Source: Owenia fusiformis
Lineage: Eukaryota
Direction of reading: 5' to 3'
Length of the DNA stretch: 64,000 bases
Assembly: GCA_903813345.2 (NCBI GenBank)
Contig: CAIIXF020000001.1
Coordinates: 26,164,001-26,228,000 of the forward strand
This document shows positions 11,245 through 35,610 of this stretch, one piece after another. The translations under genes and the position numbers were made by a program. Position 1 is the first letter of the stretch, and the number at the start of each line of letters is the position of its first letter. The notes beneath the pieces are model-generated. The model was not told the DNA's origin. It worked only from the letters and a program-made list of their open reading frames with translations, and made no database searches.

Positions 11245-12017
11245 TGTTGTATATAGTTTAGCATGATATGTACTTCTTTCTGTAACTGGAATACGATTCT
11301 AATATACAAGCAACACATACGTATTCCCGGGGAACCATAAATATTTTGTGTAGTGTGTGGACATTTTTCTGTTCATTTCTCTAAAATCAGATTATTCTCA
11401 TAAAATTCATACAAAGTTGGGCCTAAGCCTCTATTTTCGTATTCTGCATGTTAAGATATTTATAATGTAAAACCTAAGAGATAAATTCAATGTCTTCAGT
11501 TGAGAATAAGTATAAGGTAAATGTGTGAATTCTGCTTGTTGTTGCACTATTTTTATAATAAACAAGGTTCGATACACAACACTGAATAGACTGCACTCAT
11601 AGCTTAGTTGTAAAGAAAACAAAAGAAGTTGGGACGTGGTCATGCTTGAATACGATTTTAAATATATCGCTGTTTACATTTGTTGAAATCGGCCTGTATT
11701 AATTTCAACAGGTGATCGGTGTACAAGGGCATATATTTGAGTTATTGGTTTAATGATAAGTATGACCTATGAGTGGGTAATGTTTTACAAATGCATGAAA
11801 CAAATACTCCAATGGCCTAATCTCAATTTTCTTGCATAAACTATTACATTGAAATGGTGGTCATTTGCTCTCTAACTTCCGCACCGCATACGTAACTTCG
11901 TAACAATTCAATAAGCCAAGACAGGACCGCTATAATCGCTACATGCCAGTGAACATACATGTATACATTTTTTTGGCCAAATGTCACATTTTAGCATTAA
12001 CAGCATGAATTACATTT

Positions 12018-12180
12018 ACAGTCAAACTTATGTGTATTGAACATTTTTTGGCCAAGAAAGAATGTTCAGTGTTTCATAGGTGTTCACTACAGAGAGGATA
12101 ATTTATACAGATGTCAGTAGAGTATGTTTGGAGGAAAGGTGTCCACAAGAGGCAGGTGTTCACTAAGACAGGTTTTACTG
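12018..12180. mobile_element. pogo/Tigger-like MITE family (other copies ~3667-4411, 20675-20838, 21495-21652, 55360-55490)
   Basis: TA-CAGTCAAAC...CAGGTTTTACTG-TA termini and a shared internal GGTGTTCACTACAGAGAGG...AGAGTATGT motif. Confidence 0.7.
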
Positions 12181-12319
12181 TAATCTAGTTTAAGCCATTA
12201 CAAATCCTTGGATCATTTTGCAACCATAGTATTTACCTTAATTGAAACAATTTGTATTTTATTGTAGTGTCTATGGGGAATGTGACATCTGGAAGCTGAA
12301 TCTGAGATAAGTACCAGAT

Positions 12320-12389
12320 ATGGCATCTGTAGAATCCTGGGGGGCAGACAATACGACCCTTCAACACCTGAAAAATGATTCCAACTCAG
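12320..12389 (+). CDS. Candidate first coding exon A of the receptor PTP (MASVESWGADNTTLQHLKNDSNS-G, no signal peptide)
   Basis: Acceptor TTTTATTGTAG ending at 12267, in-frame TAA upstream of the ATG, and donor CAG|GTAAAC in phase 1 matching the TM exon at 14211. Two N-glycosylation sequons (NTT, NDS). Confidence 0.45.
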
Positions 12390-13588
12390 GTAAACCATTC
12401 ATAAAATAACTCAATTTTCTTTCAGTGTCCTTGGATTAGTGATCTATTAAAAACTTGACATTTGATTCTTTGATTATTGGTAAATGGGACCCTCGCAAAA
12501 AAGTTCAAATTACCCCTTACCATATTTTTCCTCTTCAGCTAATATATTGATATGGCAGATTAAAAAATAAATAGTTGAACATTAGATATGCACAGGAAAT
12601 CCTATGTATTTGTCAAAATATCAGCTTTAACTGTCCTTAATAAACTAGCCTTATATTCATTTGTTTTGTTAAACTTTTGAAAAGGGAAGACAAATATTGA
12701 GTTGCATCATAAGCCATTTAATCCAACATACACAGAGTGCTCAAAGATTACTGCATTCAGTAAATCTAAATCTCTAAAAATTGATATCACAATTTCTATA
12801 GATGAAGAGCCATTTCCTTCCTCGCTCCTTTATCGATTCACAATTCAATTTTCTGAGCTCAATTTCAGTGCCAATCATGTGTTAAATTGTCATAAGTTGT
12901 ATTGAATTTAACCTACCCTGATCTCATTAGCTAGAACACTACCCTCTTAATAAGACCAATTATTTTGCAGTTTTTCATTTAACCAATCAGACTAAACTTT
13001 TTAACTAAAAGACTCATTAATATTTTATTTTTCATTCATTTAGAATCAATGGAAATGATTTAGAGAATAATTATAGGGGATGACATGCTTTGATTGGCTC
13101 AGCTATTGCAGAGCTTATTTTGTAGTTAAAAGAGTGTAGATTTGATGACTGTTGTAAAGGGTACATTAGCCCCTACCCCATTAGTTGTAGGAGGGTTATT
13201 GACTTGGCTAAGGGTCAAGTTCTGGCTGACCGGAAAGATCATGTCCGATAGAGAATGTTCCTAGGATAGAGATAGAGCATTAAAATGATACACATTATGT
13301 AAAAAAATGAAGAAAAACTCTGACCGCATACAATTATGTTTGAGATTAAAATGGAATTGTTTATTTAAAATGCGGTTATTAAACAATCAAATGCTTGGCT
13401 GACACAAAAGAATTATGCAAGAAAGAAAAATATTTTAAAAATAACTATAAAAATGGAATTTTTTTAAAATTGACATGTAAAAGAATTTTAATACATTGCT
13501 TTGACATAATATGCATAATATTCCTATATATGGATTAAAAGAGTAGTTCAAGATGGTTTCATGAGATTTAAAAAGGAGCAAATAAAGA

Positions 13589-13685
13589 ATGGCAGGATGT
13601 ATGTCTTTGACTCTGGCATTAATGATAGCACTCACAGCACTATGTCAGTTAACATTCATGCTTTGGCTTCTCATTGACAATTCTG
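13589..13685 (+). CDS. Candidate first coding exon B of the receptor PTP (signal-peptide-like MAGCMSLTLALMIALTALCQLTFMLWLLIDNS-G)
   Basis: ATG preceded by an in-frame TAA, a strongly hydrophobic frame, and donor CTG|GTAAGC in phase 1 matching exon 14211. Confidence 0.5.
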
Positions 13686-14210
13686 GTAAGCTTTTTTATG
13701 TCTCCACCATATATTGTCTCCAACTTTCTTGTGAACTGTATTCGGCATTCAGCGGTTGGCATCTGTAAAAAATGGCAGGTGGGGACATTTTTAATGTTAA
13801 TGGCTTGTCATATTGATACATTATATACTGCCTCAATTGTCATATATGCCAGGGTGTAGTTAGCTTTCAGTCAGGGGGTGCGATTGTGGCATAAACAAGC
13901 CAAAAAAATAAGATTTATTTTGAATTTTACAAAAATTGATGCAACTTCCTTCAAAATGGAGCTAGAAGTTTCAAATAAGATATAAATCTTCTTCTTTGTC
14001 ATGATTTTATTTTCCACCCATCGCACCCCCCCCCCTGGCTACGCCAGTACGCCTATGAATGCGTACACATTCTCATACGATGTGTGTATGAATATAAAAT
14101 TACTGTCTTGCTTATTTGTGTTTTTACATTTGTTTTGTTAAATGTGATGACTGAAAAAATGTATATCCTCATCTTGAAATGTTATTATTTGATTTTAATT
14201 GCCATTTTAG

Positions 14211-17200
14211 GTCCATCTGTTGATGAAATAGAAGGGGACCCCCAGACAGAATTAGTATGGGCATTTCTATGTTCAGCGTTTACCATATTTGGACTTCTAC
14301 TTGCCACTCTTGTCTACTGCAGGTAAGTTTGCCCAGTTTCTGCTTCTTTATTAATATTTTATTTATTCATTCTTAATGATAGACAGACAAAAATAGGATA
14401 TCACAATCTAGTCTTGGGGAATTTATGTTTAGGAAGGTTTAAAATATTTTTCTTTTTCAGAAAAAGGTATCTTTCTCCAAACAATATTAGGAAGAGAAAA
14501 TTAAAGAGCATACAAGATAAGAAAGGTATGTTTTTACTGTGTTCAGTAAAGGTATATCATTTATAGAACTTGAAAACTGTGTAGTTCCTAAGTGAACCCT
14601 GGTATTGATGAATGTGCATAACTCAAAAATGTGTACTAAAGAAGAGAGAGCGGGCCTGTAGCCAGGGAAGTCAGGGATTCAGTTTTCACCATTCATGTGA
14701 TTTGGGGTCATAGTTGAGCCAAATGTGACCACCCTGGAATATTTTGAAAAGTGAACCAACCTTGGCAAAAACTGGATACTTGTCTGAAAAGTAAAAGTGA
14801 TAAAGTCTAGTACTGTATTGTTAATTGATTGTTGATGTATTTCACTAATTTTAAGGATGTTTAAACTTCGATGGTACTGAGATGAAATGATGATAAAATT
14901 ATGAAGAAAATAACTTCAAGTGAGTCATGACACAGGATTATAGGAGTCATTAAACAAAATTGCATAGAAATGAATTTGAAATTAAAGTAATTTGTCATAG
15001 ACTGTAAGAGCTCAAAATTTTCTAATATTAAATATTAAATCAATGTTATTGGTCATAATAATTTTGTATCAATAGCTATGGGCCGTCATGTCAGCCTTTG
15101 ATCTTCTAATCCATAAAATCACAATTTTTCATGTAAATAAATATATAAGAATTGAAAATCATAACCAATATGGTCTTAATTCACAGTTTGATTGTTGATC
15201 TCCAAGATATAAGACATGTGCCAAAAAAATCAGTCAGGGATTATTGTCTGAGTGAAAGCTTTATTTTAAGTGTCACCTGTGAATTGTTAATAGCAGATAC
15301 CATACAAGTTGTTTCTTCCACACTTGTAATCCTCGATTCTTATTGGTCAAGAGGTGGTCATTAATTGTAACAGTTGACTGCACACTGCATTGTCAACCTG
15401 TGGTATCAAATGGCAGTTTTGGGATATTTTTTAACAGTCAATCTCTGACATTTTAAAAAAAATCAGAAAGAAAAAACACTTTATTCTGGTGTATGAAAAT
15501 AAATCTTGATTGGGAAAATAGATGTCACTAGTAGACACTATTTGAGACTCGGCACTCAAACATAATGTCAACCTTTTCATGGAAATGTTATTGCATGTAT
15601 CTAAACTCACTGTTTGTCCAAAGCTAACATTTGCCAGATTTTGATAGTGAGTTATATTTACACAAGATCAATGATATGTGTGGAGAACAAATGTGTAGAT
15701 TGCTTCATGAAATAATTTGTTTTCTCTGATTTTTGGAAACAGCATTAGCATTAGTTCCACTTCAGTATACATTGCTTTAGTTAATCCAAAGTTTTTATCC
15801 TCCCTTTACCCTATTTGCATTGTGGCTTGATATACTGCCTGTCATTCGAGTATATAAAAATATCAAAATTTCATTGCTATGTTGACTTTAAATGATTCCT
15901 ACATTTTATTTACATTGTTTGGATAATTTCCCCTTGGTCTTATAGAATCCTAACAATTGCAACAAAAGATGCTTTATAATCAGTAACATTTGCTGAATTT
16001 TGTTTGCTTGTTTTTACAGGTTAAATGATTATTACAATCTTGTGCTCATAAACTGTTATGGAATGAAACAAATCAGAATATTCAAATTTTAGAATTTGAT
16101 TAAAACTTTCCAACAAACACAAATAACCAATAATAAAAACGATTTGTTTCTTTCTTTCTTTCTTTTCTTTGATTGAGATTTGAGATATTACGTCAATGTA
16201 AAACTAATATTAAATAAATGACATAATATTTACTCAATTCAATTTTATAAGTCATCTTATGGGTCAAAAAATTATTTAATGTTGACATTATGACCAAAAT
16301 GGTGAAACAAGATTATGCTGTAAAGAGATTATAAAATGTTACAGTTCAAAATGTAATATTGGTGTTTTTACCTGGACTTACTGCCTTGAAGCATTAGATT
16401 GTAAAGATTAACAGGTAAAGTTGTGCTAAGCCTACAAGTGTAAAGGCTTATAGCAGGACATAGGCTCGCTCAAGTTTTAATGTAACAGATTTAAGTGCCT
16501 ATTATAGAATGTATTGAATTATATTGAAGAACAACCTCATTCCAGCAAATACAGTCAAAATGACAGCGCGTGAGCTGAAAAAGCTTAAACCTAGATTTCT
16601 GGGTATACCTCAGACAAAATTTAAAGAACCATTTGAGTTTTCTTTCAAACTTGAAAAGGGATTTGATCGCAAGACGCGACTTTACTTCAGTGCAAAGCAG
16701 ACAGATTTCAGAATTCCTATGTACCCTGGGAAGAAATCAAATGTGAAGAAACTAACGATACTATGTTGTGGTCTTATAGCAAAGGAAGTGAAGCTGGTGG
16801 AGTCAGTAACTGGACATCCTGTGCCCATTGGGGAATTTGTCAGCCAGTATGCGTACAAGGCCAAGAAAAATCTAGTAGACATAGAATTCCAGGTAAGTGT
16901 TGTCTTATAGTTTGTCCCTAAAGAACACCATATACGGATTTCTGCTCAAAGAGAAACTTCATTTGTAGAAATTTTCAATTATTTATTGTGATATCTGATT
17001 ATTACAGATACATGTTGTCATCAGATATGTTCAATTGTAGGCTCTGGAGCTCAACCAAGAGACTGATCACAGCACCGGGTTTGCCAATCTGGAGGAGAAT
17101 CAGAAAAAGAATTCATATCCCGATGTCTTGCCATGTAAGTACATTATCCTAATATTGTATTATGATTGGTCCTTTGTAGGTAACTGTTTGCCCACGGTTT

Positions 17201-20200
17201 ATGAAAACCTACAAATTTAAAAACTCAACTTTTTTGTAAAAAGAACCTGACAGAAATTTTCATCTTTCTTGACAAGTTTGTGCTGAAGTTGAATTACCTC
17301 ACATGTCAGTGTAGATGAATATATTTAGATATCAATACCAGACTATAATTACTTTGACATGATTGAAATGAAGATAGATCAAACACAATGGCATTGCACA
17401 TTTACCATATTCTCTCTAATGGACGCACAACCTATTTTTCCGTGAAATTATCTGGTAACTTGAGTAAAAAATCAAGAGAAAAATGAAAAATTTGAAGTTG
17501 GGCAATGGTAGGGTTAATTGAATAATCCACTAACCATTGTCAATTAATAGGCCGTTTCTGTGCACAATGCTGTTACAGACGTGTCTCTGGAATCTTTAAA
17601 GTACATTGATAGCCTTAAAGTGATGAGTTAAAACCTACAATGAACCTAATATTCAGCCAGTCGATAATTGCATGAGAAAAACATCGAGGTATGACATTAT
17701 GTGATCTAGTCAGAGTGAGTCCACTCTTTAAGAGGAAAATCATGAAATACCCTTTTTAACCCTTTTTTAAAAATCCTGGGGATTTTGTAATTTGAGACAT
17801 CTCCTCGAGGAGAATTGGGTGATGCATTGTGCGTTTAATAAAGCGAATATGATAAATGTTTTATTATGAAAAAACTTTATTTTGGAGTCCACAGGAAGAT
17901 TATGGAGAGCAAAACTGGAGCCAATTGTGTTTTATTCTATGATGAATATATTTTAAGATGTAGCTTTGCTTGTGCCATTGCAAACCTCTGCTTTCAGATG
18001 ACTATAATAGGGTTTTGTTAGAGGAACCCAAAGATTATCCATTAACAGATTATATCAATGCCACATATTTGGATGTAAGTTTTGTATAGTATAATCTGCC
18101 ACTCTTGTTCTATAAATCAATGTCATGGTAGTCTGGCTGGTGTTTGTCTTCCTTTAACCCCCCCCCCCTTCTTGCATACCTCACCCCAACATGGTAAAGT
18201 CGATTTTTTGGGGGGGGTCCTTGATGTAAGACGAGGCTGATGTCATCAGTTGTGCAAGCAATTGTACATATGCTATTTTGGATATGTATGTGGAAATTAG
18301 TGGTCCAAATGTCACTGAGTCATTGTGGGATATCTTGCAGAAAAATGTTCATTTAAAAATGAATATTTATTTTATTGAATAAAATATGACCATCATGTCA
18401 CAATTGATGTCAAGTTTAATGGACATTATGCTTTTACAATATTCATTCCTTCGTTTTCTTTCCTTTGTAGTCTCTGGAAAAGTAGTCTTGTTGCGGCGTT
18501 GCCCCATGTTTTCTATATTTGTAGAAGTATTCAATTAATATACAGATGTACTGTGTAATAAAGCATTAACACTCTCAGCCAGAATAAAGGGACTTGTTTA
18601 CAATACAAGGGTACATACATCAATTAATTTTGCTTCATAAAATAGCCTCAACATATAAGATAAGAGGCTATTTTTATCAGATTTCTATGTTTGTGACTTA
18701 TTGAAAACAAATAATTTCCCAATGCAGTATTTAAGGAGGATGTACCCTTGATGTATTTCTGTTATTAGAATCAAGTACATGCAGAGTTGAAGTGATAGTC
18801 TTTGTACATCAGATTCCTAGAATGGAGCTGCTATACCTTCAATCCCTCATCAATGAATGAGCTCCAGGCCCATAGCCAGGATTTGCCAAGGGGGTTCACT
18901 TTTTGAAAAATTCCAAGGGGTTTCACTTGTGACAATTTTGGTCCAAAAATGGCCCAAATCACTTAAAAAGTGTTCAGAATGGTGAAAAACTGCATGATTT
19001 TGAAAGAATTTTGGGCCAGGGGGGTTCGGCTCAAACCCATCGAACCCCCCCCCCCCCCTGGCTACGGGCCTGAGCTCATTTACTGCAAAGGGGTAAAAGT
19101 ATCTGCTCTGTATGCTTCATTATTGGTACTGTAATTGTTTCCCAAGGCGTTTCTAATAAACAAGGCCCTTTAAATGGTGTTTAGATTAGATTTAAAGGGT
19201 TATGGCAGATTCCCTCTTTAATAATCTTTTAATTGATTTTTAATAACAACATGCACAGCGTACCTGCAGCAGTATATACACAGAGGCAAGGGATACCTGA
19301 CTTTACTAATACACCCAAAACTCTGAAAATGCATGCTACATCTTGTTAACTCTTTCCATTTTGTGTTATACTAATTATTTTCAGTTGACCATAACAGAGT
19401 GATCCTCCAGGAGGACACAGGGGATGATTACCCCACAGACTACATAAATGCTTCATATATTGATGTGAGTAGATCACTGAGTATATAAATGCTTCATATA
19501 TTGATGTGAGTAGATCACTGGGTATATAAATGGTTCATATATTGATGTGAGTAGATCAAAGAGTATATAAATGATTCATATATTGATGTGAGTAGATCAC
19601 TGGGTATATAAATGCTTCATATATTGATGTGAGTAGATCACTGGGTATATAAATGGTTCATATATTGATGTGAGTAGATCAAAGAGTATATAAATGATTC
19701 ATATATTGATGTGAGTAGATCACTGGGTATATAAATGAGTCATATATTGATGTGATTGCTTCATATATATTGATGTGAGTAGATCACTGGGTATATAAAT
19801 GATTCATATATTGATGTGAGTAGATCACTGGGTATATAAATGATTCATATATTGATGTGAGTGCTTCATATATATTGATGTGAGTAGATCACTGGGTATA
19901 TAAATGCTTCATATATATTGATGTGAGTAGATCACTGGGTATATAAATGCTTCATATATTGATGTGAGTTCTTCATACACACAAATTGACATTTGGATTA
20001 CATGCTTTGTTTTATAAATCATAAACTAAATTCTATTGATTAAAGTCAAATGTTTTGTCTTCTATCATGGATACCTAATAAAAGTTTTCATGTAAAGGTA
20101 ACATTTTAAAAAATTGAGCTTCGGAGGTATCTTAAATTGAATTTCTGTACATTTCAGGGATATAGCAAACCAAAGGCCTATATTGCAGCAATGGGTAAGT

Positions 20201-23200
20201 CATTATATTGTATTATTATTTGTCTGTGATATCTTTCAGAAAACTAAATCACGTTCTTTCCTTCTTGCACAAATAAGCATGATGTAAAAGTTGTGTAAAT
20301 ACTAAATTGTAATCCAGATTGTATGATTTTTTTGCAGGACCAAATAAAGACACAATGGGAGACTTTTGGCAGATGGTCTGGCAGGAAAATGTGCACTGCA
20401 TTGTTATGGCATCAAATCTGTTTGAACATGCTAGGGTAAGTCACAAATCAGTATAGCCTCCACAAATAGCTTTAAGGGTCAACATCTGTAAATGGAAGAT
20501 ACTCTCCAGGTTTTATATTGGAGAGCTTGCCAGTTCAGTCTGTCAACTGCAGCATTAAATACTTGGCAGAGTTTGGAAAAGCTCATGTAAAATTTTATCA
20601 AAGTCTGAGTGCAAAATTAAGGACACTCATTCTTTGTGCAAAGAGCATAGGCAGTCAACAGTGCTTAATAAGAGTAATACCTGTGTACAGTGAACATTGG
20701 AGCCAAACAATGTGTTCACTATAGGTAGGTGTTCACTACAGAGAGGCAATTGTTTACTCGGTGGAGTATGTGCTGAGAAGAGGTGTTCACCAAACACAGG
20801 TGTTAACTAGAGGTGCTCACTAAGGCATATTTTACTGTGCTTCTTATAAAGATGTGTAGTCTTGAAGGATCTCTTAATTACTTGGACTTATTGGTTACAT
20901 TTTTGTTTTCGTGTAGCAACAATGTGAGCGCTACTGGCATGGAACCCATGGTCGCTATGGTGACATCGAGGTGTGGCTCATGGAAACAGTTGTCACATCT
21001 GAATTTACTATAAGGATGTTCAAAGTAATGAGGGTATGTATCAGAGTCAAATGTAAAGAGAATATCTACATGTATAGAAAATGAACCACATTGTTCAAAA
21101 GCTTAAACACAAAAATAAACAACACTTGAACCACACGTTTTTTGTATACTAAGTTTACATTGCATATAATTGGACCAGAAATGCTTGACAATTTGACTCA
21201 TGATATCCCTATGCCAAACATATGTATACATTGATTTATTTCAGGAAGGCTATAAGGATGAGCGCTTTGTACAGCACTATCAGATCAGTAGTTGGAGTGA
21301 ACATGACTGCCCAGATGAGAGTGCAGTCTTGGAATATAGAAGGGTCATCAAGAGCTACATGGCCAATGTTCCCGGACCTGTCCTTGTGCACTGCAGGTAT
21401 ATTTACAATTGATGCCCCAGTTTTATCTCACTTTTTATGTCTCGGCATTTCCAACTACATAACTTCATGTACAATTGTGCAATGAAAGTATATTATAAAA
21501 CCTGTGTACGGTGAACACCCACAGAGCCACAAAAATGTGTTCACTGTAGGTTGGCGTTCACTACAGAGATGGAAATTTATACAGAAGTCAGTAGAGTATG
21601 TGTGGAGGCAGCTTGTCTACAAGAGAGGGGTGTTCACTAAGACAGGTTTTAGACTACATAACTTCATGTACGCCATAAATTGAGAAACAATCTGATATGT
21701 GATATTTCAGCTCGGGTGGTGGCAGGACAGGGGCATTTATAGCACTAGACATTATTCTCGAGAGGATTACGAGAGAAAAGAATGTCAGCATTTTTGACAC
21801 GGTGTTGTATCTACGAAACAGAAGACAGAATATGGTCAACAATGTGGTAAGCTGCATTTACTATTCCATGAAATAAAATGTGAAATCAAATCACCTGCAG
21901 TACATCTTTGTATGTCTTTTACTCTATCACCCCCATGAGCCTTTTCCAATTTTACAAGGTCTGTTGTGCTTTAAAACCATGTAACAGTGCCAAAAGTGAT
22001 TGATTGATAACCCATAGATTATCTAGAACAAACAGGATATAATATACAGTTTAAAATCTATTATGTCATTTAGTTAATGCATTTTTATCAATGAAATATA
22101 TATTCGCTTACAGAGATACAGCTCACAGCCAACCTCTTTAATCTACATCATATGTGTTTATTAATTTGTAGGAGCAATATGATTTTATATACAAGTGTGT
22201 TTGTATGTATGTGCAATGTGGAGTGACAGTCATACCTGCCTCTCAACTGCCCATGGTGGTGCAGAGCATGTCTCTTAAGGACAGGCAAACGAAGCTGAAT
22301 GGCTTTGAACGGGAATACCAGGTTGGTGATTTTTGTGTTTTTAATCATTTTACAAAAAAATATGTTACGGCTGTTAGTTTAAAGCAGAATGCAAATAGGT
22401 AAAATCAAGGTGTTAAAGATAATGACAACCATCTTTGACATGACGATTACAACAACAAAAAAATCATTATGTGTATTTCCAGACATTGAAGGATGTAGTA
22501 CCTAAGTTATCAGTTGGAGAATGTGCAGGGGGACATAGGCATGAGAACAGGAAGAAAAGTAGAGAAATTATGCTTCAACCACGTATGTAGACACATCTTA
22601 TTTATCCATTACACACCATTCTGGGCCAAACCCCACATTGAAAGATCAAGACAAAGGGGATGTGGTTATCAAGATGATTATTCTCCCATTTACAGAAGTA
22701 ATATTTACCTTTATCAGGATTTTCAGCATTCCAAATAGTACTTGGAATATTTACCATTAAGCAGCCTGGTGTTTTCGTGCCATATTCAAATATATTGCAA
22801 ACTATAAAATTGATGTTTGATTTCAGCTGAAAGGGCAAGGCCTTATCTGATGACACATGATAGTGCCACAAGCACAGATTACATCAATGCAGTTTATGTA
22901 GATGTAAGTAGTCATTACCATTACATATTATGGCCATGGCATGTATTATAGGAGGCTCAAATTAAATCTGATTGTCAATTATCTAACCTAATAAAATGTT
23001 CCTGTCTTATTAATTTATGCAAGTCTCGACCATTGAGTGATATTGGAATATGGCTTTATCACTGGGTTTAGATATGAAACATATCCTGAAGGATATAGTA
23101 TATATTAATTATATATATATCAGACAACATAACCAAAGTGTAACTTAAAAATCATTTTCCAAAACTATTTTCTGGTACATGTAATTCCTTGCTATGCTGA

Positions 23201-26200
23201 TTCTGTGTTTTATATTTATTTTCTACAGGGATTCAAGTACAAAAATGCATACATTGCTACCCAATGGCCATTGAAGAACACTCAGGCTGACCTATGGCGT
23301 CTCATATACGACTACAACGTTCATGCAGTGGTTGTTCTGAATGAGCCCACATCACCTGATATCATTAATGTAATGTAGTCTCTCTATTGTTATTTAAGAG
23401 AGTTAATGTTAATTAATTAATTTAAACCATTGTACAAGTATATATACATGTAATGTATTCAATACCATCAAGAATGTTTACCATTTTCAAGATTTCAACA
23501 ACAATTTTAAACATATTCATTTTATTTGAATTAAATATTTATAATTATGATGAACATTCCTTGATTTGTGACACTGATGAATGAACAAACAAAATTTTAG
23601 TTTTGAATGTTTGGATGATAGCAGCACTTTGATTTTTTATTTTAGAAATTCAAATTCTGGGAAGATTATGAAAAGTTCTGGCCAACAAAGGATGATAAAG
23701 ATGCACTTTATGGGCCATTAACTGTTTTCATGGAGCATGAGACAGACTATTCAAATATCACCACCAGGGACTTTCGTATTCGCAAGGTATTGTTCTGCTG
23801 CTGTCATAAGCTTTGCCATTAACCTCACAATACAGCATACATCATCTAAGAAGCATATTGCATTGAAGTATTTCCATGGGCTTTCAAGAGAAAAAAGCCC
23901 ATGATATTTCTAATATTAAAGGTCAGGTCAAAATCAATATCTGCGAAACATTGAACTTAACGAACTCCAAACCTCTCAAAGTGTATTTTGTATATACGGT
24001 ATTTGGTATTTTGACAAAAGTCAGTATTCTCACATGAACCAGGCCTTAACAATCTAAAACATAAAAGAACTTTAAATTTGAAATTGCTAAATTGGATAAT
24101 CATATTTTTCTGATTTATAGCCCAAGAAGTATGTGAATGTAATGAGTGATCTCTCAGAAGCTGGCGAGGTAGGTTTGATATTTCCATTTTAACATACAAT
24201 AGAAACAAGAGGGCATCAGTAGATAGTGGAAACATATCAAGATGTTTATAATTCTAGTTATCAAATATCAAATGAACACTTGCTATTAAGCTCGTCTTTA
24301 TATCTTATATGTTCCAAAATGTCAAAATAATATCCACAGGGCCGTAGCCAGGATTTGCCAAGGGGGGTTCACTTGTGACGATTTTGGTCTAAAAATGGCC
24401 AAAATCACTTCAAAAGTGCTCAGTATGAATGGTGAAAAACTGCATGATTTTGAAAGATTTTTTGGCCAGGGGGGTTCAACCCCCCCCCTGGCTAAGGGTC
24501 TTATCCATATACACATAAGTGGAAGCCATTTGTCCAAAACTGCAGTACATTGTGATTTTGTATGTAGATTTATGAATTAACTACATCTCATTCTGGTTGC
24601 ACTATCTACTCTTAACTCATCTCCCTTCCTTTATTGAATTCTTTATTGAATTCATCAGGTTATTCCAGTAATTACTTGGTCATCTACACATTGTGTATAA
24701 ATAACTATTAATATGATATACATAACTACCTGAAGATAATAATTGATACTCATACTGTATTATCAAAATGTTTCATACCACCGTATTTTCTTTATTCTTC
24801 CGATTCTACTACAGTAGGATAACACAGGTAAAATAGCAACCATTTGTAATTGTATTGTTGTTTCAATTTCAGTTTGCTTAGTAATAATTTAATATGCATG
24901 TCAAGTTTTTACTGCATGCAAGTGTACATAAAATAGCAATAGAATAACATGGTTTTAATTTGGAAAGATTAAAAAATCAGGATTGTTATCTTCAATGGAA
25001 TGGCCAATGAAAACAAGCTGAAATTCTTATGTATAATGTAATATGTAACGTATTGTATCACAAATCTTCATTTTTTGTCCAGCGTCTTTTTGGCATCAAC
25101 AGTGTAAGTGGTTAGGCTTTATATGCATGATCCCCAATTTTACCCATGCCTGATGCTATCATAATGGTACAAAAGCCATCATAATAGTGCCCATTTCCAC
25201 ACAATAGCTCCCATATCATCACAATGCTACTCAAGACATCACTGTACATGTAGTACCATGGCCTCTCAACATTTTTGAAAGCCCATTGTTGTACTCATGT
25301 CATAACAATAGCACACATACACATATTATCAGAACCTTTCTCATGTCATCACAATAGGTCTCACGGTGTTGCAATGGTACTCATGACATCACAGTAGAAA
25401 TCTAGTCAAGTCAATAAAACATATATTTTTCATAATAGTGCTCAAATCACCACAATAGTTCCCATGTTATTTAAATGGTACTTGGAACATCACAATAGCA
25501 CCCTACCCTTATCATCACATTAGTTCTACCCCCATGGGCTTCTCTTGATATCCCATAGCTATACCCATGTCATCACAATAGATCTCATCTCATTACAATG
25601 ATTCTCATGACATCACGGTAGCACTTATATGATATCCATTGTATTATATTCTCCCTTACTGTTTTACATCTAGCGTTTATTTGGTATACCTCTCTTCCCA
25701 AATGCTGTAAGTTCTCGAACAGTTTTATGTTGATTCTGTTTGAATAACATTAAACTCATTTTTTGAGTGTCATGTGACTTATTTCATTATTTAAGAGGTT
25801 ATTTGATAACTAACTAAACCTTTTCAACACCATAGGATGGGGAAAGGTTAAATAATTTGTTTTGGTGATGCATTGACACTTTTCCATTTTATTATGTCAC
25901 CACAAGAAGTGGTGACATATTGTGCTAATCTTCAGCGTTTTTGTTGCTGGTGTTTGATGGCTGGTGTATGGCATCCAGTGCTCAGCAGTTGGTGTTCGGT
26001 AGTCTGCTCCTCCTGTAACAAATGGCAAGTGGTGACATTTTGCATGTTAATGCCTTGTTTTATTTGCATCCATAACTCTGCATACAGTTGTTAGTATAGG
26101 GTAAAATATCTAACATTGGTCCTTTGCCAGAACTGCAAGTGTTTCATGAATACATTGACATTGAACTAGAGAGTGTAATATATTGCATTTGTACTACATT

Positions 26201-29200
26201 TTTTATTATTTATTTTGTTTTTTTATTTTTATTTATTTTTTATTTTTTGCATGATGTGACATCTTTATTTTCTTAAGTTTGTGTGTCTTGTAAAACAAAG
26301 TTGTTGCACAGTTTTGGTACAGTGTTAGTGTGTATTTAGAAATAAAAAACCACTTCTCTGATCTTGAGAGTTATTGCTAATTATTGGGTGTTGAACGATT
26401 TCAGTGATGCATGATTTATTTGAAAGTTACAAAGGGAAAGAAATAATTGTTTATCAAAGTTCTGCGATGATACCCAGACCTCAACGTACTGTATTGTAAT
26501 GTTGGCATTTTAGGATCTGCATTCATCCATGGGCTTTCAACTTTCTATGATTCCCATGATTCATTATACTGCCAAGTTCGCCAATACTTAGCATAGCACA
26601 GAATTATGAGATCTGGTTATTACCGAAAACCTGTGTAAGTTGAACATCATTGGTTAGATTTCCATTTGTGGTGTTCCACTTGTAGAGGTGGTACAATAAT
26701 TTGAAGTCATGGGACTTTGAAGTGTTCAACTTAAGATGTATTCCACTAGACAGGTTTTCTCGTATATGCAAAATAACTTTTTGCGAGGGTTAGATCTCTA
26801 CAGTATAGCTTTTTAATGATTGTCCATACTGCAAAAGGATCATGCAACACTCATTACATGCAAGTCTCAAAGATTGAAGAGATGCCTGTATTACATTAAT
26901 GATGTTAATCAGCACTAGTATATATTATACTAGTATATATAATTATATTTTTTGGTTTCTTCTAGATAGGTGGCTGGTTGTAGCTATGAAGCTATTCATC
27001 ATCGCACAGTAATGAGAATTTATATTTTATGTTTGAATGTTTTCTGTAGGCTGACCCCGCCACAAAACTCATGTTAGCAGATATGGTGAGAATCAGCTAG
27101 TTACCAATATATGCTTGCTTAGATAAGATATTGACATTTGAAATATTTGCTGAATCGTCTATATGTGTGTATTATATTACCAGCTAGCTAGGAGGTGTTA
27201 GGGAATTTAAAGGAATAGTCAAAATATGTTGCATCAGATATGTAACCAATTCAGTTATGCAATTGACCCTCCCACCCTCTGCAAAGCTTAATTTACAAAT
27301 ATTTTATGTATACACTTACACAATTAAACCTCTTTCTTAGTATTCATTTCAATACTAAATTATTCACAACTCAATGTGCAGACCATAACTTTTTAAATCA
27401 TTTTGGTTTTTTTATCAATGTACATGTAGTTAAATTTTTGATCCAACATCCATCTTTTGTCAGCTTCCTTTATTCAATGTAGAATTCTATATGTTTAATA
27501 TAAGTCAAATATTTCATTCTATTAAGGTGAATATGTAAGTGTTATGTACTGGGAGGTTTTGAATACATGGTTCATCTCGTGGGAAATATATGTACAAGTT
27601 GTATATCTCCTCAATGACAGGAGTTATAAACCCTGTATCCAAAACTGATTGGATAACAAGTGTATCCCATACCTAGTGTGGTTCTAGATCTAGTACCTTC
27701 TTAGAATTTGAATTTTTTTTGAAAATAAATAGTGAAAATTTTTTAAGTTTAAAATGAATTTGAAAAGATATAACTTAATGAAGCGAGGCCAGATTGGATC
27801 TAACTGGATGTCTGGATCCACAATTATCTATAACAGGAGAAATATCCATCCAGCTCTTTAGGTACACTATATATTCCTGCATGCTATATACCTAGCACTG
27901 CATAAAATGTATGTATGGGATACATGTTCAAATGTCAATGATTCTCACAAGACATGCTCACTGAAACAGATTGGGATGAGAAATACACTTTCAAATAAAA
28001 TGAAATATTTTTGACCAATTATTAAGTAGTAGATATGCCAGTGAAATATTATCCTTAATTTGCTACAAAGCTTTAATTGTTATAACATAGTTGCTTTTCT
28101 GTAAGACAGCCATTAGTCTTGCATCCAGTCTTTGGATCCCCCTACATACTTCCTTTATGGAGTCAAGGTAAAGGTATGAAGGGGGTAGAATACTACAAAT
28201 ACAAGACTTAATCTATTGACTGTACCACAATGTAAACACCTGCTTCTGGACTCAGAGATTTACTGCTTTACAGATTAACGGAAAGTGACAATATAATGAG
28301 TGATCATACAACTTGTTTGCCTACTCAATTTTGTTTATATTTCTCCCTAGATGATAGAGACATTTTGTAAAATAATTTTTGTTTTCAGATTTCTTTCTTT
28401 GGAATGAAACACAGAATCTCTTTTTAGAATAGTCTTAAATCTGAATTTGTAAATTATTATTTATGAAGTTTTATTGATTAATTGAAAATTTCAAAAGCCA
28501 CCAAAATGTGATTACATATACTTTGCTCAATGACTATACATACATGTATTATAGATTAATTGTTGTAACAAAAGACAGTATGAATAAAATAGAAATGTTA
28601 ACCATATGTAAATCACTCCAATATACCTTGTCTTTTTTACCTTCAATTGTTATTCACAGGCATTGATTCGTATGGACAACAAACCCAAATCAAGATCTGC
28701 AGAGGGAGAGAAACACTGCCGTATGTTCCATCTGCATTGCTGGCCAAATGGGCATAAAATTCCAACTTCGAATCTTGCCATGATAGAATTGTTTAACATG
28801 GTCAACCAGTGGCAGATGGACACCAATGAAAGTGGGCCTATATTGGTTGTATCTAAGTAAGTGCTTATGATTTAAAATCATGTTATAGGTCTATATATTT
28901 TTATATGAAACATTTACACATATTTAATATATAGTATCCCAATTGTACATAAGAAGATAAGAACACAACCAAAATCTGAATATCCTCTTATATGATGCAT
29001 TGTATTTTAACCCTTTATTTTGTCAAAAGCCTATTTATTGAAGTACAAAACACTTTCACCTGCCTCATATCATTATTAAAACTCCATTCTTCCCAGGCCC
29101 ATGGGGCTACAGTCGTTTTTGTATTTGATTATTTGTGAAATCCTTTTACAGAAATGGAGTCAATAGGTGTGGTGTTTTCTGTGCCCTGAATATTGCATGT

Positions 29201-29912
29201 GACAAACTCAACACTGAGGGAGAGATTGACATTTTCAAAGCAGTCAAGTGTGTAAAGATGAATCGACCTCAATTGGTCGATAGTATGGTGAGTTAGGGAC
29301 CAGATCAAAAAATCTTTTTCAATATACCATAACTTAACAAAGACTAAGACTTCTTGATCCAGTCATCTGTTTGTTAAACTTTGTTGTTAAAAGTTTGAGG
29401 ACACAAACTGACTACTTGTATCTGTATCCAGTCTAGTTCCAAATTAATGGGGGCCTCTCCTAAGAATCAAAGTTAAATGAATGCAAAGGGTACACATTGG
29501 GTTCCACCTTAATGTAATTAGTTTGCGACATGATGATGGTGATAATGAATGATGTTACCCCCAATGGTCATGTTGCATAATACATATCTGTTTATCATTA
29601 GGCTTCCTGCTGTAACATAGTGATAACTTGAGAACTAGTGATCAGATTAACATAACTCATAAATATGTCCAAAAATTAAATGGAATTATGTGTATTTCTT
29701 ACTACTTTCAGATGGAGTATATCTACTGCTACACCTTCATGGTGGTATTACTGGAGCTATTACAGAACAGTTATCTCCAAGGTATTATACCTAGGATTCT
29801 CGTTACAGAAGAGGAGAGACATGCCTTGGCCAACTCACCCTATATCTATGATAACCAAGCTTACACTGGACAAGGAGCTGAGCTTGAACCACATTCTAGT
29901 ACATATATTTAA
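14211..29912 (+). CDS. Receptor-type protein tyrosine phosphatase-like gene (TM + tandem D1/D2 PTP domains), spliced
   Basis: Phase-consistent AG/GT exons: 14211-14322 (TM LVWAFLCSAFTIFGLLLATLVYC), 14461-14525, 16546-16892, 17041-17134 (KNSYPDVLP), [17998-18074 or 19385-19464] (DYINA), 20158-20194 (YIAAMG), 20338-20435 (DFWQMVWQE), 20917-21033, 21245-21396 (WSEHDCP...VLVHCS), 21711-21846 (SGGGRTG), 22172-22321, 22483-22582, 22827-22903 (DYINAV), 23229-23369 (YIATQWP), 23646-23786, microexons at 24121-27085, 28660-28856 (WPNG...ILVVS), 29152-29287 (KNGVNRCG), 29712-29912 (stop after ...SSTYI). Confidence 0.95.
17998..18074 (+). CDS. PTP D1 mutually exclusive exon, variant A (YDYNRVLLEEPKDYPLTDYINATYLD)
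   Basis: CTTTCAG acceptor and GAT|GTAAGT donor, 77 nt, phase 1 to phase 0. Carries the DxxRVxL and DYINA motifs. Confidence 0.88.
18865..19072. mobile_element. MITE family with CAGG..C.TAGCCAGG/CCTGGCTACGG.CCTG ends (copy at 24337-24500; relatives ~13851-14047 and ~14650)
   Basis: Terminal inverted repeats and a near-identical interior in 18865-19072 and 24337-24500. Short flanking direct repeats (GAGCTC; TATCCA). Confidence 0.7.
19385..19464 (+). CDS. PTP D1 mutually exclusive exon, variant B (FDHNRVILQEDTGDDYPTDYINASYID)
   Basis: TTTTCAG acceptor and GAT|GTGAGT donor, 80 nt, phase 1 to phase 0. Paralogous to 17998-18074. Confidence 0.9.
19444..19975. repeat. 41-bp tandem array derived from the 3' end and donor site of PTP exon variant B
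   Basis: Unit ATAAATGCTTCATATATTGAT|GTGAGTAGATCACTGGGTAT, about 13 full or partial copies. The first copy overlaps the exon. Confidence 0.95.
24121..24168 (+). CDS. PTP D2 microexon, 48 nt (PKKYVNVMSDLSEAGE)
   Basis: TGATTTATAG acceptor and GAG|GTAGGT donor, phase 0-0, open frame. Confidence 0.7.
25083..25103 (+). CDS. PTP D2 microexon, 21 nt (RLFGINS)
   Basis: TTTTTTGTCCAG acceptor and AGT|GTAAGT donor, phase 0-0. The peptide start is shared with 25674-25706. Confidence 0.7.
25150..25625. repeat. Degenerate ~20-bp tandem repeat between the two RLFGI microexons
   Basis: Recurrent CATGTCATCACAATAG(C/T)AC-like units. Confidence 0.65.
25674..25706 (+). CDS. PTP D2 microexon, 33 nt (RLFGIPLFPNA)
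   Basis: GTTTTACATCTAG acceptor and GCT|GTAAGT donor, phase 0-0. Encodes the same RLFGI as 25083 using different codons. Confidence 0.7.
27050..27085 (+). CDS. PTP D2 microexon, 36 nt (ADPATKLMLADM)
   Basis: TTTTCTGTAG acceptor and ATG|GTGAGA donor, phase 0-0, open frame. Confidence 0.7.
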
Positions 29913-32900
29913 TGAGGTGGAGATCTTGTACATTGTAGTATATGGTAAAGCCTACATAGGATAGGAACATGCCTTTACATGGATGCATGCCTTAAAGCCT
30001 GTCTCTTACATGAGAGCATGCCTACAGTATGAGGCTCAAACACTGATCTGATAAAGAAACAAATAAGACAGAGTGAACATTCCAAATTATTGGATGGAGA
30101 ATCTAAAAATCTACCATTCACATTCACAAAATGTACTTGTTGGTTGAATTGATCAAAATTGGGAACAGAAAAATTGGGCACTGGAAATTTGCTGGTATGT
30201 CTAGAATATCAAACTATTTACATGTATTTGATACAGAATCAAGAACATTACATTTTATGTCAAAAATTGAAATTGAAAGCTTACTAATAATACAATATAT
30301 GTAGTTTTAGTATTGTTTTTAGTTTTGTATGTGCCTTAAAACTGCCAAATAGTTTTAAAATATATGTAATTACACATTAATATAATTAACTTCAGAGGTT
30401 TTGATAACATGGAGTCATTGAACAATCATGTAAATAGAAGCACAATAACTGTTTTGAAAGTGTGTGAAAATCTACTTTTCTACATACAATGAATTGTTAT
30501 TCTAAATCATCTAGGATGTTTTTTGTCGTTTTTGCATTTGGTCTTTTAAGTACAATTGTATGTTCAAAGGGTACATACTGCCCTGTTAGTACTATTCTAC
30601 AGTGTATTCTAAGCTCTTCGACATTTAAAAAGTCACTCAACTTTTTTTGTGATTATGAGTCAAAGAAAGCATTCTTGAGTTTCAAATTGACTTCTGTGGT
30701 AACTTGAAACCATCTTCTAATTTATTCCACTTACCTTTTATTGTTTCTCCAAATATATTCTTTGAAAATCGGATTTTAAAGGCGTTAATCAGGGCAATTC
30801 TCTGCCATTTTGATCAAAAATCTTGTTGCTACCTAGAAACGAGCAATTGTGATCTTGTTGTTTCCTAGGAACTAGCAACTGTGATGTCACGTCACACCAT
30901 GGGCTTTCAATTTCTAGTTGAAAGCCCATGGTCACACTCATGTGAATTCTGGAATCACATGGCAGCCATTTTGGAAATTTCAAAAAAGTTCCCAATTAAA
31001 AAGGCTAAATGCTGTTTACAAATTGGAAAAAACGATTGCAGAATCAACAAAAGGTTTGTGAAATAATTAGGATAAGGTTTCAAAATTATGCATATGACAA
31101 TATATGACTACTAAATGCAGGCAGGGACTTTTAATTGCCAAAAAGTTCAGTATCAAAAAGCATTGGTATCTACCTTAGTAAGGTACATGTACTCAGGTTC
31201 CTCAGATGGCGGCGTATTCTTTGGGTGCAGTTGCACCCCCTCTGAAATCTCAGAAAAATCCCTGAGGAAATAATGTCATAACAGCTATCAGTTCTTTATA
31301 TTTTGCTTAGTGTACAATGATCTTCTTAATTTTACGCTTTGCTTACTGCATTTTGTTTAATTAGGATGAAAATGGAAATTAAGCAATCATAATGGATCTA
31401 AACTCAATGTATGTCTGATGTCATATGACCATTTTCTGTAAAAAATTAGTTAATTAGTGTCTGATGGCCAGGCCTGATAGTGTACCTTTCAACCACTCTT
31501 ATACTATTTTAACATACTTTCAGATCCAATGTATGAATCACTTACAATTGTTTGTTTGTATATACATCTGTACATTTATGTGCAATAACATTCCATGTAT
31601 AAAATAATTTACATGTGAAAAATGTTCTAATACAACTGTATGAAATAGAATTGATAAATAAAAACAATTCAGTCTTTTGCATGTCCCATAAGCTGGTAAT
31701 TAGGTAATTATTGGTAATCATTAAACCAGACCTAGCAAAACAAATTAATATGGATGAATCGAAAGATTTTATCAAAATATGTATAAGTAATTACAGTTGA
31801 CAGGCAGAGAACAATGTGTTATCCAGGGGTTCATTAACAGGAATTCCTATATCAATTTATCGTAACCATGAATATAATGACCTGAATGATGTCACAGTGG
31901 TCAAGCAAAAAATTGTTTAATTTTTTCCAATGGAAATACTTTTTCCTCTGAAAGACAAGTCTCGGTTTGTTATATGTAAAAATATCAAAACTGTCCGAAG
32001 CAGGCGTAACGTGCAGTACATTGATTCAATAAAAGACAAGTCTCGATTTAGAGAAAGAAGTTTATCAGTCAGTCAGTGTACTGCGCTAATAATTTTTTTA
32101 TGAAACAGAAATATCACCCAAATTAAAGGGGCAACAAGGCCTGTAGAGAGAAAAATTTTAACTTTTTCTGAGCTATCAAGGCAACATTTGGCTTAACATC
32201 TTCTTTGATATAGCCTACCTATTTTCTTAAAATGTATGGATAAACTATCAATTTCAGCATTAAGAACTGTAAATTCAGTTCAAATGTTCAAAAGGGGAAA
32301 TCCACTTTTATATTTTTAAGATCCACCATGTTTCAAGAGGAATATCAGCTGAAATAATGTTTATCTATGGGGTTTCTAAAAATAAATGTAAGTCTTGATG
32401 AAATATCTAAACTTAAATATATTTTGACACTGGCACATGACCATTGAATAATTGGATCTCTGCACTAGGCCTAATCGTTGCACCTAAATTGGATATTCAA
32501 AAGAGGACATTTAAAATCTACAATATGTAAAAATATCAAAATTGTCCAAAGTAGGCTACAAAACTACTTTCAAACCATTCATGAACATGAATATAAAATA
32601 AACAGAACAACTACATGAACATAAAACTTAAACACTAACACTTTTTGGCATACCTGTACATACAGGTAGGTTAGATAATTACCTGGTGAAAATTATTGAA
32701 TGCAATTTGTCATCACATCCTCCTTCTCATCAACATGACCTTTTCGGTTTTGATATCAGTCTATCAATTTCAGTATTTTTAAATTCACTTCTGAACTAAA
32801 GGATCTAGTGCGCCCTCCATTATGATCTCCCCATGAACAAAAATAAATGCATCTGATTTTTCAAAATAAATATACTGCTTTTATTATTACATTTATATGT

Positions 32901-33050
32901 ACACTAGTATCTTGTTGTCCTATATTCAGCACTGTATTGATGGATGTGCCATTTGCTTGAACTTAGAATCAGTATGATATACAGGTACCTTGTAATTGTA
33001 ATGTGTCCATTTATAGAAAAACGTTACAATGCATTTTGTATTCAATGATA

Positions 33051-35610
33051 GATGTCAACCAACTAGACAAAATAACATCCTTGACTTAGTATTCACTACA
33101 TGCCCAAACCTCGCAGAAAGAATCTCGGTGGTTCCGGGCATGAGTGATCACGAGGCAGTCCTATGTGATATAAACCTAAAAATGAAAATTCAGAAAAAGA
33201 AGCCTCGTAAGGTCCACATATACAAGCGGGCAGAATGGACTGGACTTAAAGAGACTCTACGATCTAAGTTCAGCGAATTCAAAGAGAACTGTGAAAGTAG
33301 ATCAGTTGAAGACAACTGGTCCTCCTTCAAATCTACATTAATATCGTCAATCAATGAGCATATTCCAAGTAAAACTCTAAGTGGGAAATTCAAAGTACCC
33401 TGGATTACCACCAGGATACTGAGAATGATCCGACAGAAACAAAGACGATATAATGTTGCCAAACGTTCAAATGAACCTCATCATTGGCATAAATACAAAT
33501 CACTACGGAAATTAATCCATAGTGAAATTCGTAAAGAACATCAGCGCTACATCAACGATCTGCTTGACATTGATGAAAGCGAAATCATAAATGAGAATGT
33601 TCAGCACAAAGGCATTACCAAACGCTTCTGGAGCTACATAAAGTCTAAACGCAAAGATGCATCAGGTATCAGCGTGCTGCGTAACAAAGATGGCGACGAA
33701 ATAACAGACGCCGCCCAGAAAGCAAACATCCTCAATGACCAATACAATTCTGTATTCACAGATGAGGATGCCACTCTACCGACAATGGTACCTAGTCAAA
33801 TTCCTGAAATGCCAAATATCAAAATTTCGACAAAAGGAATTCACAAATTGCTAACTGGCCTAAATCCATCAAAAGCCACTGGACCCGATCTTATTCCGAC
33901 TAGGGTCCTGAAGGAATGCAGTGACAGCATATCACCATTCCTTCAAATAATTTTTCAACAGTCTATCGATGAAGGCTTAGTGCCTTTGGACTGGAAACAT
34001 GCCAATGTTACTGCTATCTACAAAAAGGGACGAAGAGATGAGGCTGTGAATTACAGGCCTGTATCTCTGACGTCAGTTCCATGTAAAATAATGGAACATA
34101 TTATATTCCATCATGTTATGGCCCACTTTGACCTCTATGAAATTCTAGTAAAATTCCAACATGGATTCAGGTCAAAGCACTCATGTGAAACACAACTTGT
34201 CAATACAATAGAGAATATAGCTCGGGCCCTCGACAACAATAAACAAACAGACATGTTGGTATTAGACTTTTCCAAAGCGTTTGACACGGTGGCTCACGAA
34301 CGCCTCTTGCTCAAACTCGACTATTATGGAATTCGCAATAATAACTTGAACTGGTTCAGATCCTGGCTTGTGGGAAGATCACAACAGGTAGTGCTCGATG
34401 GTGAATCAAGTTCAAAAACTCCAGTAAAATCAGGAGTTCCTCAAGGAACAGTTCTTGGACCACTCTGTTTCCTTGTGTATATCAATGATATGGGCAATAA
34501 CCTATCATCCTCAGCCAGTCTTAAGCTTTTTGCCGACGACAGCCTTTTATTCATGACAGTCGAAAGCAAGCAAGATGCATTAACACTACAGGAGAATCTT
34601 GATAAACTGGTCTCCTGGGCATCAACATGGCAAATGAAATTCCATCCATCAAAATGCTATGTGCTAAATATTCACAAAGGTAAATCCCCTATCATGCACA
34701 ATTACACCATGCTAGGGGAAAACCTTAAGTCGGTAACACACATCCCATACCTAGGAATTGACATCACAAATAACTTACGCTGGACTACACATATTCAAAC
34801 TATTGTATCCAAAGCCAATAAGGTGCTTGGATTTCTCAGGCGCAACCTCCATCAATGCCCTGAAAAAGTGAAGGCTCAGGCGTATAAGTCACTAGTCCGG
34901 CCTAATTTAGAGTATGCCAGCTCGGCATGGGATCCATACCGACAAAAAGATATTGATATGTTGGAACAGGTACAGAGAAGAGCAGCCAGGTTTGTAACCA
35001 AATGTCACTCAAGGGAACCAGGCTGCGTCACCAAAGCTCTTCAAGACCTACAGTAGGAGCCACTGAAGGAGCGTCGAGAGGCTGCTAGAGTTTTCCTTTT
35101 CTACAAAGGAAAGCAGAACCTAGCAGCCATCGACGTGCCTCCATACTTCCGCCAACAGATCAATACCAACACTAGGTTGTATCATCCTTCTAAGTTCATA
35201 CAACCATCAGCTAGAACGGATGCATACAAATTTAGCTATTTCCCTAGGACAATAGCTAAATGGAACACTCTACCTGGTGACATCTTAGACTGTGACAGTC
35301 TAAGTAGTTTTAAATCATCATATGCCTATGTCAATAACTGCAATTAAATAGGTGTGTTTTTAATATAGATCTATGTTTTAATGTAAAGGGTCCCCAGTGC
35401 ACAGCAACAAGCCTGCACTACTGGTAAAAGGGGGTGATGTCAACGCGGTAGCCTGACAGTCTCCCCAGGTAAAATGAGTTGTAAACCATAGATCTATTTT
35501 TAAATGTTAAGGTTTTAAATTATATTCTATTCAAATTCTATCACTGTTAAATTATATATCTGCTTTATATGGGCTTATTAGCCTTTTGCAGATTATTGAC
35601 ATAGACATAG
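33051..35610 (+). mobile_element. 5'-truncated non-LTR retrotransposon (CR1/L2-group LINE), copy A. ORF2 has the end of the APE domain plus RT and one premature stop.
   Basis: PTR..NILDLVFT (APE end), KATGPD, NYRPVSLTS, QHGFR, DFSKAFD, GVPQGTVLGP, LFADD. TAG at 35054-35056 where copy B has TGG; the frame continues to TAA at 35347. The 3' UTR ends in an (ACATAG)2 tail. Confidence 0.95.

Follow-up and report, generated by a model that had tools for sequence, protein, structure and literature searches.

The stretch of DNA analyzed here, referred to as the window, comprises 64,000 nucleotides (nt) of Owenia fusiformis (assembly GCA_903813345.2, contig CAIIXF020000001.1, positions 26,164,001 to 26,228,000 of the forward strand). 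It contains a gene for a receptor-type tyrosine phosphatase in which one small exon of the first phosphatase domain (D1) is present in two versions, designated exon A and exon B. These exons are a real and old duplicated pair, constrained at the protein level and mutually exclusive by reading frame, with B as the default version. They are probably a mutually exclusive exon (MXE) pair. Our assessment leans slightly towards an old exon duplication with frame-enforced exclusivity, in which A serves as a minor or context-specific alternative to the default B. The pair and the constant exons on both sides of it are as follows (positions of the window):

17041..17134, + strand: constant exon 5, ending with D-V-L-P plus one base of a split codon (phase 1)
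17998..18074, + strand: exon A, an unannotated paralogue of exon 6; 77 nt, phase 1 to 0, TCAG acceptor, GTAAGT donor, open
19385..19464, + strand: exon B, which is exon 6 of the deposited protein; 80 nt, phase 1 to 0, TCAG acceptor, GTGAGT donor, open
20158..20194, + strand: constant exon 7, encoding G-Y-S-K-P-K-A-Y-I-A-A-M-G and entered in phase 0

Exons A and B encode two versions of one D1 segment

Exon A is located in the intron preceding B, and a 1310-nt intron separates the two. The initial annotation had described them as paralogous exons of 77 and 80 nt, both running from phase 1 to phase 0; all its coordinates and properties were reproduced, and both exons encode the motif claimed for them, D-x-N-R-V-x-L ... 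D-Y-I-N-A-x-Y-x-D. The stop-to-stop frame around exon B is 37 amino acids (aa) long. The two peptides are identical at 17 of 25 aligned residues, and their global BLOSUM62 score of 88 was reached by none of 5000 shuffles (mean -1.3, standard deviation 7.9, maximum 36). When the window was searched by tblastn with the deposited Owenia protein (P0004), exon A was matched at an E-value of 5.6e-4, and no third copy of the exon was found in the window by this search, save exon 14 of the second phosphatase domain (D2) and partial copies in a tandem array. On the protein tyrosine phosphatase (PTP) profile PF00102, A covers positions 9-36 with 12.8 bits and B covers positions 13-38 with 22.9 bits.

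The A and B peptides are identical at the core residues. They differ in the first residue (Y in A, F in B), in the position of D-H-N (Y/H) and further in L/I, E/Q, the loop, T/S and L/I. The loop of A is two residues shorter than that of B at one place and one residue longer at another, the length differences being whole codons. The predicted switch of the residue after D-V-L-P was recovered, since the split codon reads Y with A and F with B. This is a conservative swap, as Y has a weight of 0.73 in that column among 84 distinct relatives and F is found in some relatives.

As 77 and 80 nt are not divisible by three, the frame is kept only if a transcript includes one of the two exons and not the other. 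The earlier statement that inclusion of both or neither breaks it holds: with A and B joined, a stop occurs 6 codons into B, and with both skipped, it occurs after 2 codons. Because these stops lie far upstream of 14 further exon junctions, nonsense-mediated decay is expected. A and B are neighboring internal exons of similar length and the same phase, with compatible splice sites, homologous peptides and no in-frame stop. Joint inclusion and joint skipping are both opposed by a frame shift with early stops, to which decay would presumably be added. The term "mutually exclusive" used in the initial annotation is thus upheld in part, namely by the logic of the frame.

According to the mechanism that we propose, one small exon would have been duplicated in tandem long ago, giving two versions of a D1 segment. 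The swapped segment would run from the residue after D-V-L-P through the D-Y-I-N-A-x-Y-x-D strand (about positions 9-38 of PF00102), and we take it to be PTP motifs 2 and 3. Presumably, it forms the D-x-x-R-V-x-L strand, a surface loop and the D-Y-I-N-A strand, packed under the phosphotyrosine-recognition loop from exon 5. The stretch encoded by exon 5 corresponds to the phosphotyrosine-recognition (KNRY-type) motif. Exon A would be spliced in today, and nonsense-mediated decay would remove the transcripts with both exons as well as those with neither, enforcing exclusivity. The A form would keep the structural core, with Y in place of F at the first residue, Y in place of H in D-H-N, a different surface loop between the strands, and, at the end, T in place of S and L in place of I. 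The two forms are likely to differ in the surface near the substrate-recognition loop, and thereby in their contacts with substrates or partners, the catalytic chemistry being the same.

The exon pair is old, and exon A has been under purifying selection

Exon A shows protein-level purifying selection. In the Nei-Gojobori comparison of A and B, the proportion of synonymous differences (pS) was 0.80 (11 differences on 13.8 sites), which is past the Jukes-Cantor limit and means saturation, and the nonsynonymous proportion (pN) was 0.21, giving a Ka of 0.25. The flanks of A and B, compared over 30-200 bases, were no more alike than shuffles (z at most 2.1), and the exons themselves reached a z of 7.0. 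The saturated synonymous sites and the dissimilar flanks bear out, in a relative sense, the description of the pair as old in the initial annotation, and the dating of the pair goes no further than "synonymous sites saturated". The observation that the DNA has diverged yet the motifs are kept was also correct, as the same codon is used at only 6 of the 17 positions with identical residues.

The differences between A and B fall on the third position in 14 of 25 codons and on 10 of the 50 first and second positions (hypergeometric P 0.002). Neutral copies of B were simulated in 20000 trials. With at least 0.5 substitutions per site, an open frame, the AG and GT dinucleotides and at least 17 identities were retained together in a fraction of at most 0.00015. 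The family profile was made of 84 distinct segments, from 116 relatives out of 119 proteins searched. Exon A keeps 8/8 of the strongly conserved family columns (a weight of at least 0.8 on one residue) and scores 57.6 on this profile. Copies of B decayed neutrally by the same 24 base changes scored 8.8 on average and 42.8 at most, so that 0/20000 reached the score of A. The excess of third-position changes, the conserved columns and the profile fit beyond neutral decays support the description of the pair as selected. The codon, flank, simulation and profile evidence together indicate that A was maintained as a coding exon through most of the period after the duplication.

The host gene encodes a tandem-domain receptor phosphatase

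The coding region of the gene and the D2 counterpart of the exon pair are as follows:

12320..29912, + strand: coding region of a receptor-type tyrosine phosphatase; 21 GT-AG exons, a short ectodomain, one transmembrane stretch, D1 and D2
22827-22903, + strand: exon 14, the D2 counterpart, also 77 nt and phase 1 to 0

A splice-aware search rebuilt the deposited 766-aa "unnamed protein product" of Owenia fusiformis (P0004) exactly, with 2301/2301 coding bases, and the 51-residue peptide of the exon at 21245-21397 gave a 100% identical match to it. In P0004, a short N-terminal part and a single hydrophobic stretch accompany two tyrosine phosphatase domains. The match of the phosphatase to PF00102 over the whole domain had 406.5 bits (E 4.7e-122), and the best solved structures by sequence were the tandem domains of PTP sigma, LAR, epsilon and alpha.

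The catalytic loop H-C-x5-R is present in D1 as H-C-S-S-G-G-G-R. The canonical W-P-D loop, which we take to be the general-acid loop, is not met in Owenia D1, where W-S-E-H-D-C-P is found, and M-V-N-N replaces M-V-Q-T of what we take to be the Q loop. The spiralian orthologues are likewise without W-P-D. D2 is without the catalytic cysteine and has V-V-S-K-N-G-V-N-R at the position of the catalytic loop. These non-canonical departures of D1 and D2 (window 21245-21397, 21711-21846 and 28660-29287; P0004 residues 270-365 and 600-665) are shared by the spiralian orthologues. Judged by its sequence, the gene is a tandem-domain receptor phosphatase with an inactive-type D2, and it is a member of a protostome receptor phosphatase family that has been little studied and has a non-canonical acid loop.

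The peptide of D2 exon 14 scored 13.5 bits on the Pfam PTP profile. As this exon has the same length as A and the same phase, the intron positions here predate the D1/D2 duplication.

Splice sites and intron elements

The initial annotation had attributed good splice sites to both exons. This holds for the donors, whose scores on a position weight matrix (PWM) of 9.2 for A and 7.4 for B lie in the range of the 19 other donors of the gene (4.2-13.3), and needs a qualification for the acceptors, which scored -3.6 (A) and 5.3 (B), both below all 19 others (7.9-16.8), on a small PWM that was made from this gene only and penalizes C. The pyrimidine content over -22..-5 is in the range of the other exons (9-14) for both acceptors, namely 12/18 for A, with only 6 T, and 11/18 for B. 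The weak acceptors of A and B fit regulated exons but are no proof of them.

Two repeated elements lie in this region:

19444..19969, + strand: 41-nt tandem array of 12.7 copies, which begins inside exon B and repeats its last 21 bases and donor
18865..19072, no strand assigned: short repeated element with 16-nt terminal inverted repeats in the A-B intron; the inverted pair is 94% complementary

The 9-mer across the exon B donor occurs in 13 exact copies, all with equal donor score, and the array has higher-order periods of 105-146 nt with 84-96% identity. If any of the 12 downstream donor copies (19505-19963) were used, a stop would follow at residue 34 of the extended exon B. The array may represent a young minisatellite, or alternatively its donor copies may serve as decoys. 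We consider it improbable that both exons are translated and that the choice between them is tuned by the 13-fold array of B donors, which would act as decoy 5' splice sites extending B into a stop and sending B transcripts to decay. If both exons are translated, this would be the first documented mutually exclusive switch in the catalytic core of a classical tyrosine phosphatase.

A related copy of the inverted-repeat element is found near 24340-24500, also within an intron of the gene. The contig depth over the element was in the tens of thousands in all four sequencing runs used (X1, X2, X3 and X7), and such an extreme depth indicates a high copy number of the element in the genome or transcriptome. 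The best inverted pairs near the exons were 20-21 nt long with 76-80% complementarity and lie in AT-rich sequence. No match to Rfam at the gathering score was found in 12000-30500. The motif TGCATG, which we take to be an Rbfox-type site, occurs at 17669, 18991 and 19330; with 41 occurrences on the + strand of the window, this is near the background density and supports no claim.

RNA and protein evidence for the use of the exons

Exon B is in use, as it is carried by the deposited Owenia protein, whose 90% cluster has one member. Run X7 consists of spliced contigs, and GT..AG joints were found at or within a few bases of at least 8/20 introns of the model (21033/21245 to 29287/29712; agreement within the stated cut offsets). 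No joint at 17134, 17998, 18074, 19385, 19464 or 20158 was present among the 15 of 203 X7 joints that were listed. The X7 bin with exon B had a depth of 40.2, approximately as expected from 80 exon bases at the depth of the neighboring exons. The bin with most of exon A had a depth of 3.39, within the range of the intron-only bins (3-28). As contigs drop rare variants and the depth is given per contig, we draw no conclusion on exon A from the X7 depth.

Runs X1-X3 (254-368 million letters each) cover the introns contiguously and are not spliced RNA. Their contiguous contigs, with depths of 7-39, lie at 12270-12970 over the first exon (X1 and X2) and at 16375-17241 from intron 3 to exon 5 (all three runs). 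These contigs look like enrichment peaks and possibly mark a promoter and, directly before the exon pair, a regulatory region within the gene, if our guess at the library type is right.

Relatives and outgroups

The closest named relatives are "epsilon-like", "kappa-like" and "mu-like" receptor phosphatases. The relative from the brachiopod Lingula anatina has 51% identity. Further relatives were found in oysters, scallops, mussels, gastropods, cephalopods, a bryozoan and flatworms and in a partial Capitella model, with one version of the segment each. Among the Lingula anatina isoforms X1-X12 (P0005 and P0124-P0134), 11/12 have a 7-residue insertion after V-V-P and 1/12 has a single H. The site of this insertion is the exact start of the segment corresponding to A and B. 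Isoforms that vary at an equal boundary indicate that a different splicing device acts on the same position.

The exhaustive phmmer search with the frame of A against 1.84 billion representatives gave 16 matches at an E-value of at most 0.001. Thirteen of them are short single-exon frames, 56-69% identical to the A frame; the sources were looked up for 10 and were environmental contigs in all cases. These 13 frames end with V-S and mostly begin with S-D-D, as would be given by read-through of AG|AT and of a GTAAGT-type donor. A shares 13-17 identical residues with them and B shares 15-18. Since A and B are about equally close to these frames, they do not tell which copy is ancestral, nor whether another species has both. 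By this comparison, A is not clearly the faster-evolving copy.

Alternative explanations for exon A

Several results weigh against a working exon A. No transcript or protein with exon A was seen, the sole deposited Owenia protein carrying B, and no protein of 73-2000 aa in a database of 5.8 billion proteins shares three 5-residue words with the A frame, which is weak evidence. The A acceptor has the lowest PWM score in the gene, and 36% of the 961 AG sites in 12400-29900 score equally well or better. The composition of A is intron-like: its GC content and its GC content at third codon positions (GC3) are both 0.308, and the introns have 0.323. The corresponding values are 0.42 and 0.481 for exon B and 0.43 and 0.451 for the whole coding sequence. 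A also fits the PTP profiles less well than B does (12.8 versus 22.9 bits with Pfam, 57.6 versus 74.4 with the relatives). In simulated neutral copies with about 0.25 substitutions per site, the open frame, the splice dinucleotides and at least 17 identities survived together in a fraction of 0.077 (7.7%), and a neutral period of about this length or shorter is compatible with the data. No convincing docking/selector complementarity was detected in 17100-20200 among 20 inverted pairs. Finally, no second version of the segment was seen in 12 Lingula, 5 oyster (4 Ostrea and 1 Saccostrea), 11 aligning mussel and 3 bryozoan proteins taken from 90% clusters. One of the 11 mussel predictions is truncated where the segment ends, another mussel protein beyond these 11 aligned only through D2, and eleven short fragments and a 45-aa cluster member did not align.

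The absence of A from known proteins, its composition, its poorer fit to the family, its acceptor and the simulated drift all favor the view that exon A is an unused relic, namely a once working alternative or the original exon, which is no longer spliced and has not yet decayed. We regard this as rather unlikely but deserving serious attention. A retains all eight conserved columns, both splice dinucleotides, an intact frame and a perfect GTAAGT donor, and its length differences from B are all multiples of three. In view of these intact features, any silent period would have been short relative to the age of the duplication.

It is also conceivable, at a low probability somewhat below that given to the tuning of exon choice by the donor array, that A is mainly a "poison" exon, in which case inclusion of both exons would shift the frame, lead to decay and tune the amount of the phosphatase without a second protein. 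The stop 6 codons into B agrees with this, and reads joining MXEs are described as frequent in frame-incompatible MXE clusters in the part of the study that we used (Hatje et al. 2017, PMC5740500). However, a poison exon needs no conservation at the protein level, and A has both the 8/8 conserved residues and the excess of third-position changes.

Very improbable is a fairly recent copy of a fragment of another phosphatase gene, the divergence of which would reflect gene age and not local selection: intron positions are common to receptor phosphatase genes and D2 exon 14 matches A in length and phase, so that a foreign exon would fit the frame, but no protein in the shared-word search, deposited Owenia proteins included, corresponds to A, the best matches among the 1.84 billion representatives reach only 56-69% identity, and A is of the D1 type, unlike the D2 exon.

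Other features of the window

The window has the composition of AT-rich animal DNA, with a GC content of 0.29-0.40 per 2-kb window. An open frame of 679 codons at 33017-35056 (+ strand) includes a reverse transcriptase domain (PF00078, E 9.2e-34), and its C-terminal part recurs as an incomplete copy in the opposite orientation at 37046-37681 (- strand). Both are remains of a non-long-terminal-repeat (non-LTR) retrotransposon downstream of the phosphatase gene. A minisatellite at 309-890 encodes a repeated S-N-P-S-I-T-I-L-S peptide on the - strand, and the weak Pfam matches obtained there look like low-complexity artifacts.

Comparison with known systems

No described case of duplicated alternative exons inside a tyrosine phosphatase domain was found in the literature searched, as far as the listed titles and beginnings of abstracts tell. 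An MXE cluster in human PTPRS is mentioned by Hatje et al. (PMC5740500), and its place in the gene is not stated in the part of that text available to us.

The Lingula anatina orthologue resembles the Owenia gene in that the boundary after the V-P ending the preceding exon varies, which changes the first residue of the segment. It differs in that a 7-residue insertion alternates with none, a pattern that an alternative acceptor would explain and a second exon copy would not.

The published criteria for MXE prediction, in the portions of the papers used here, are similar length, the same frame, compatible splice sites and homology (Pillmann et al. 2011, PMC3228551; PMC5740500). The MXE clusters described there share with the Owenia pair the lack of an in-frame stop and a frame shift upon joint inclusion, with decay expected. 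In contrast to the Owenia pair, which is known from sequence criteria, the published clusters were validated, according to the same portions, by reads that span the junctions of each exon with the exons flanking the pair.

Mutually exclusive exons inside catalytic domains are reported for Mapk14 (p38 alpha CSBP1/2), Mapk9 and Mapk10 in the section of the source at hand (PMC1431701), and by analogy these exon pairs are the closest documented counterparts of A and B. As described there, the MAP kinases, like the Owenia locus, have a homologous exon pair by which part of a signaling enzyme's catalytic domain is exchanged. The difference is that they are kinases with documented transcripts, whereas the Owenia gene encodes a tyrosine phosphatase in which the second exon would be used. 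Swapping a part of the catalytic domain by mutually exclusive exons is a compact route to two enzymes per gene, as documented for the MAP kinases. The deposited annotation is without one probable isoform. If exon A is used, Owenia would offer a natural pair of D1 variants distinguished solely by the first residue of the segment and by the hairpin loop next to the phosphotyrosine-recognition motif. With such a pair, one could ask how this surface influences the choice of substrate.

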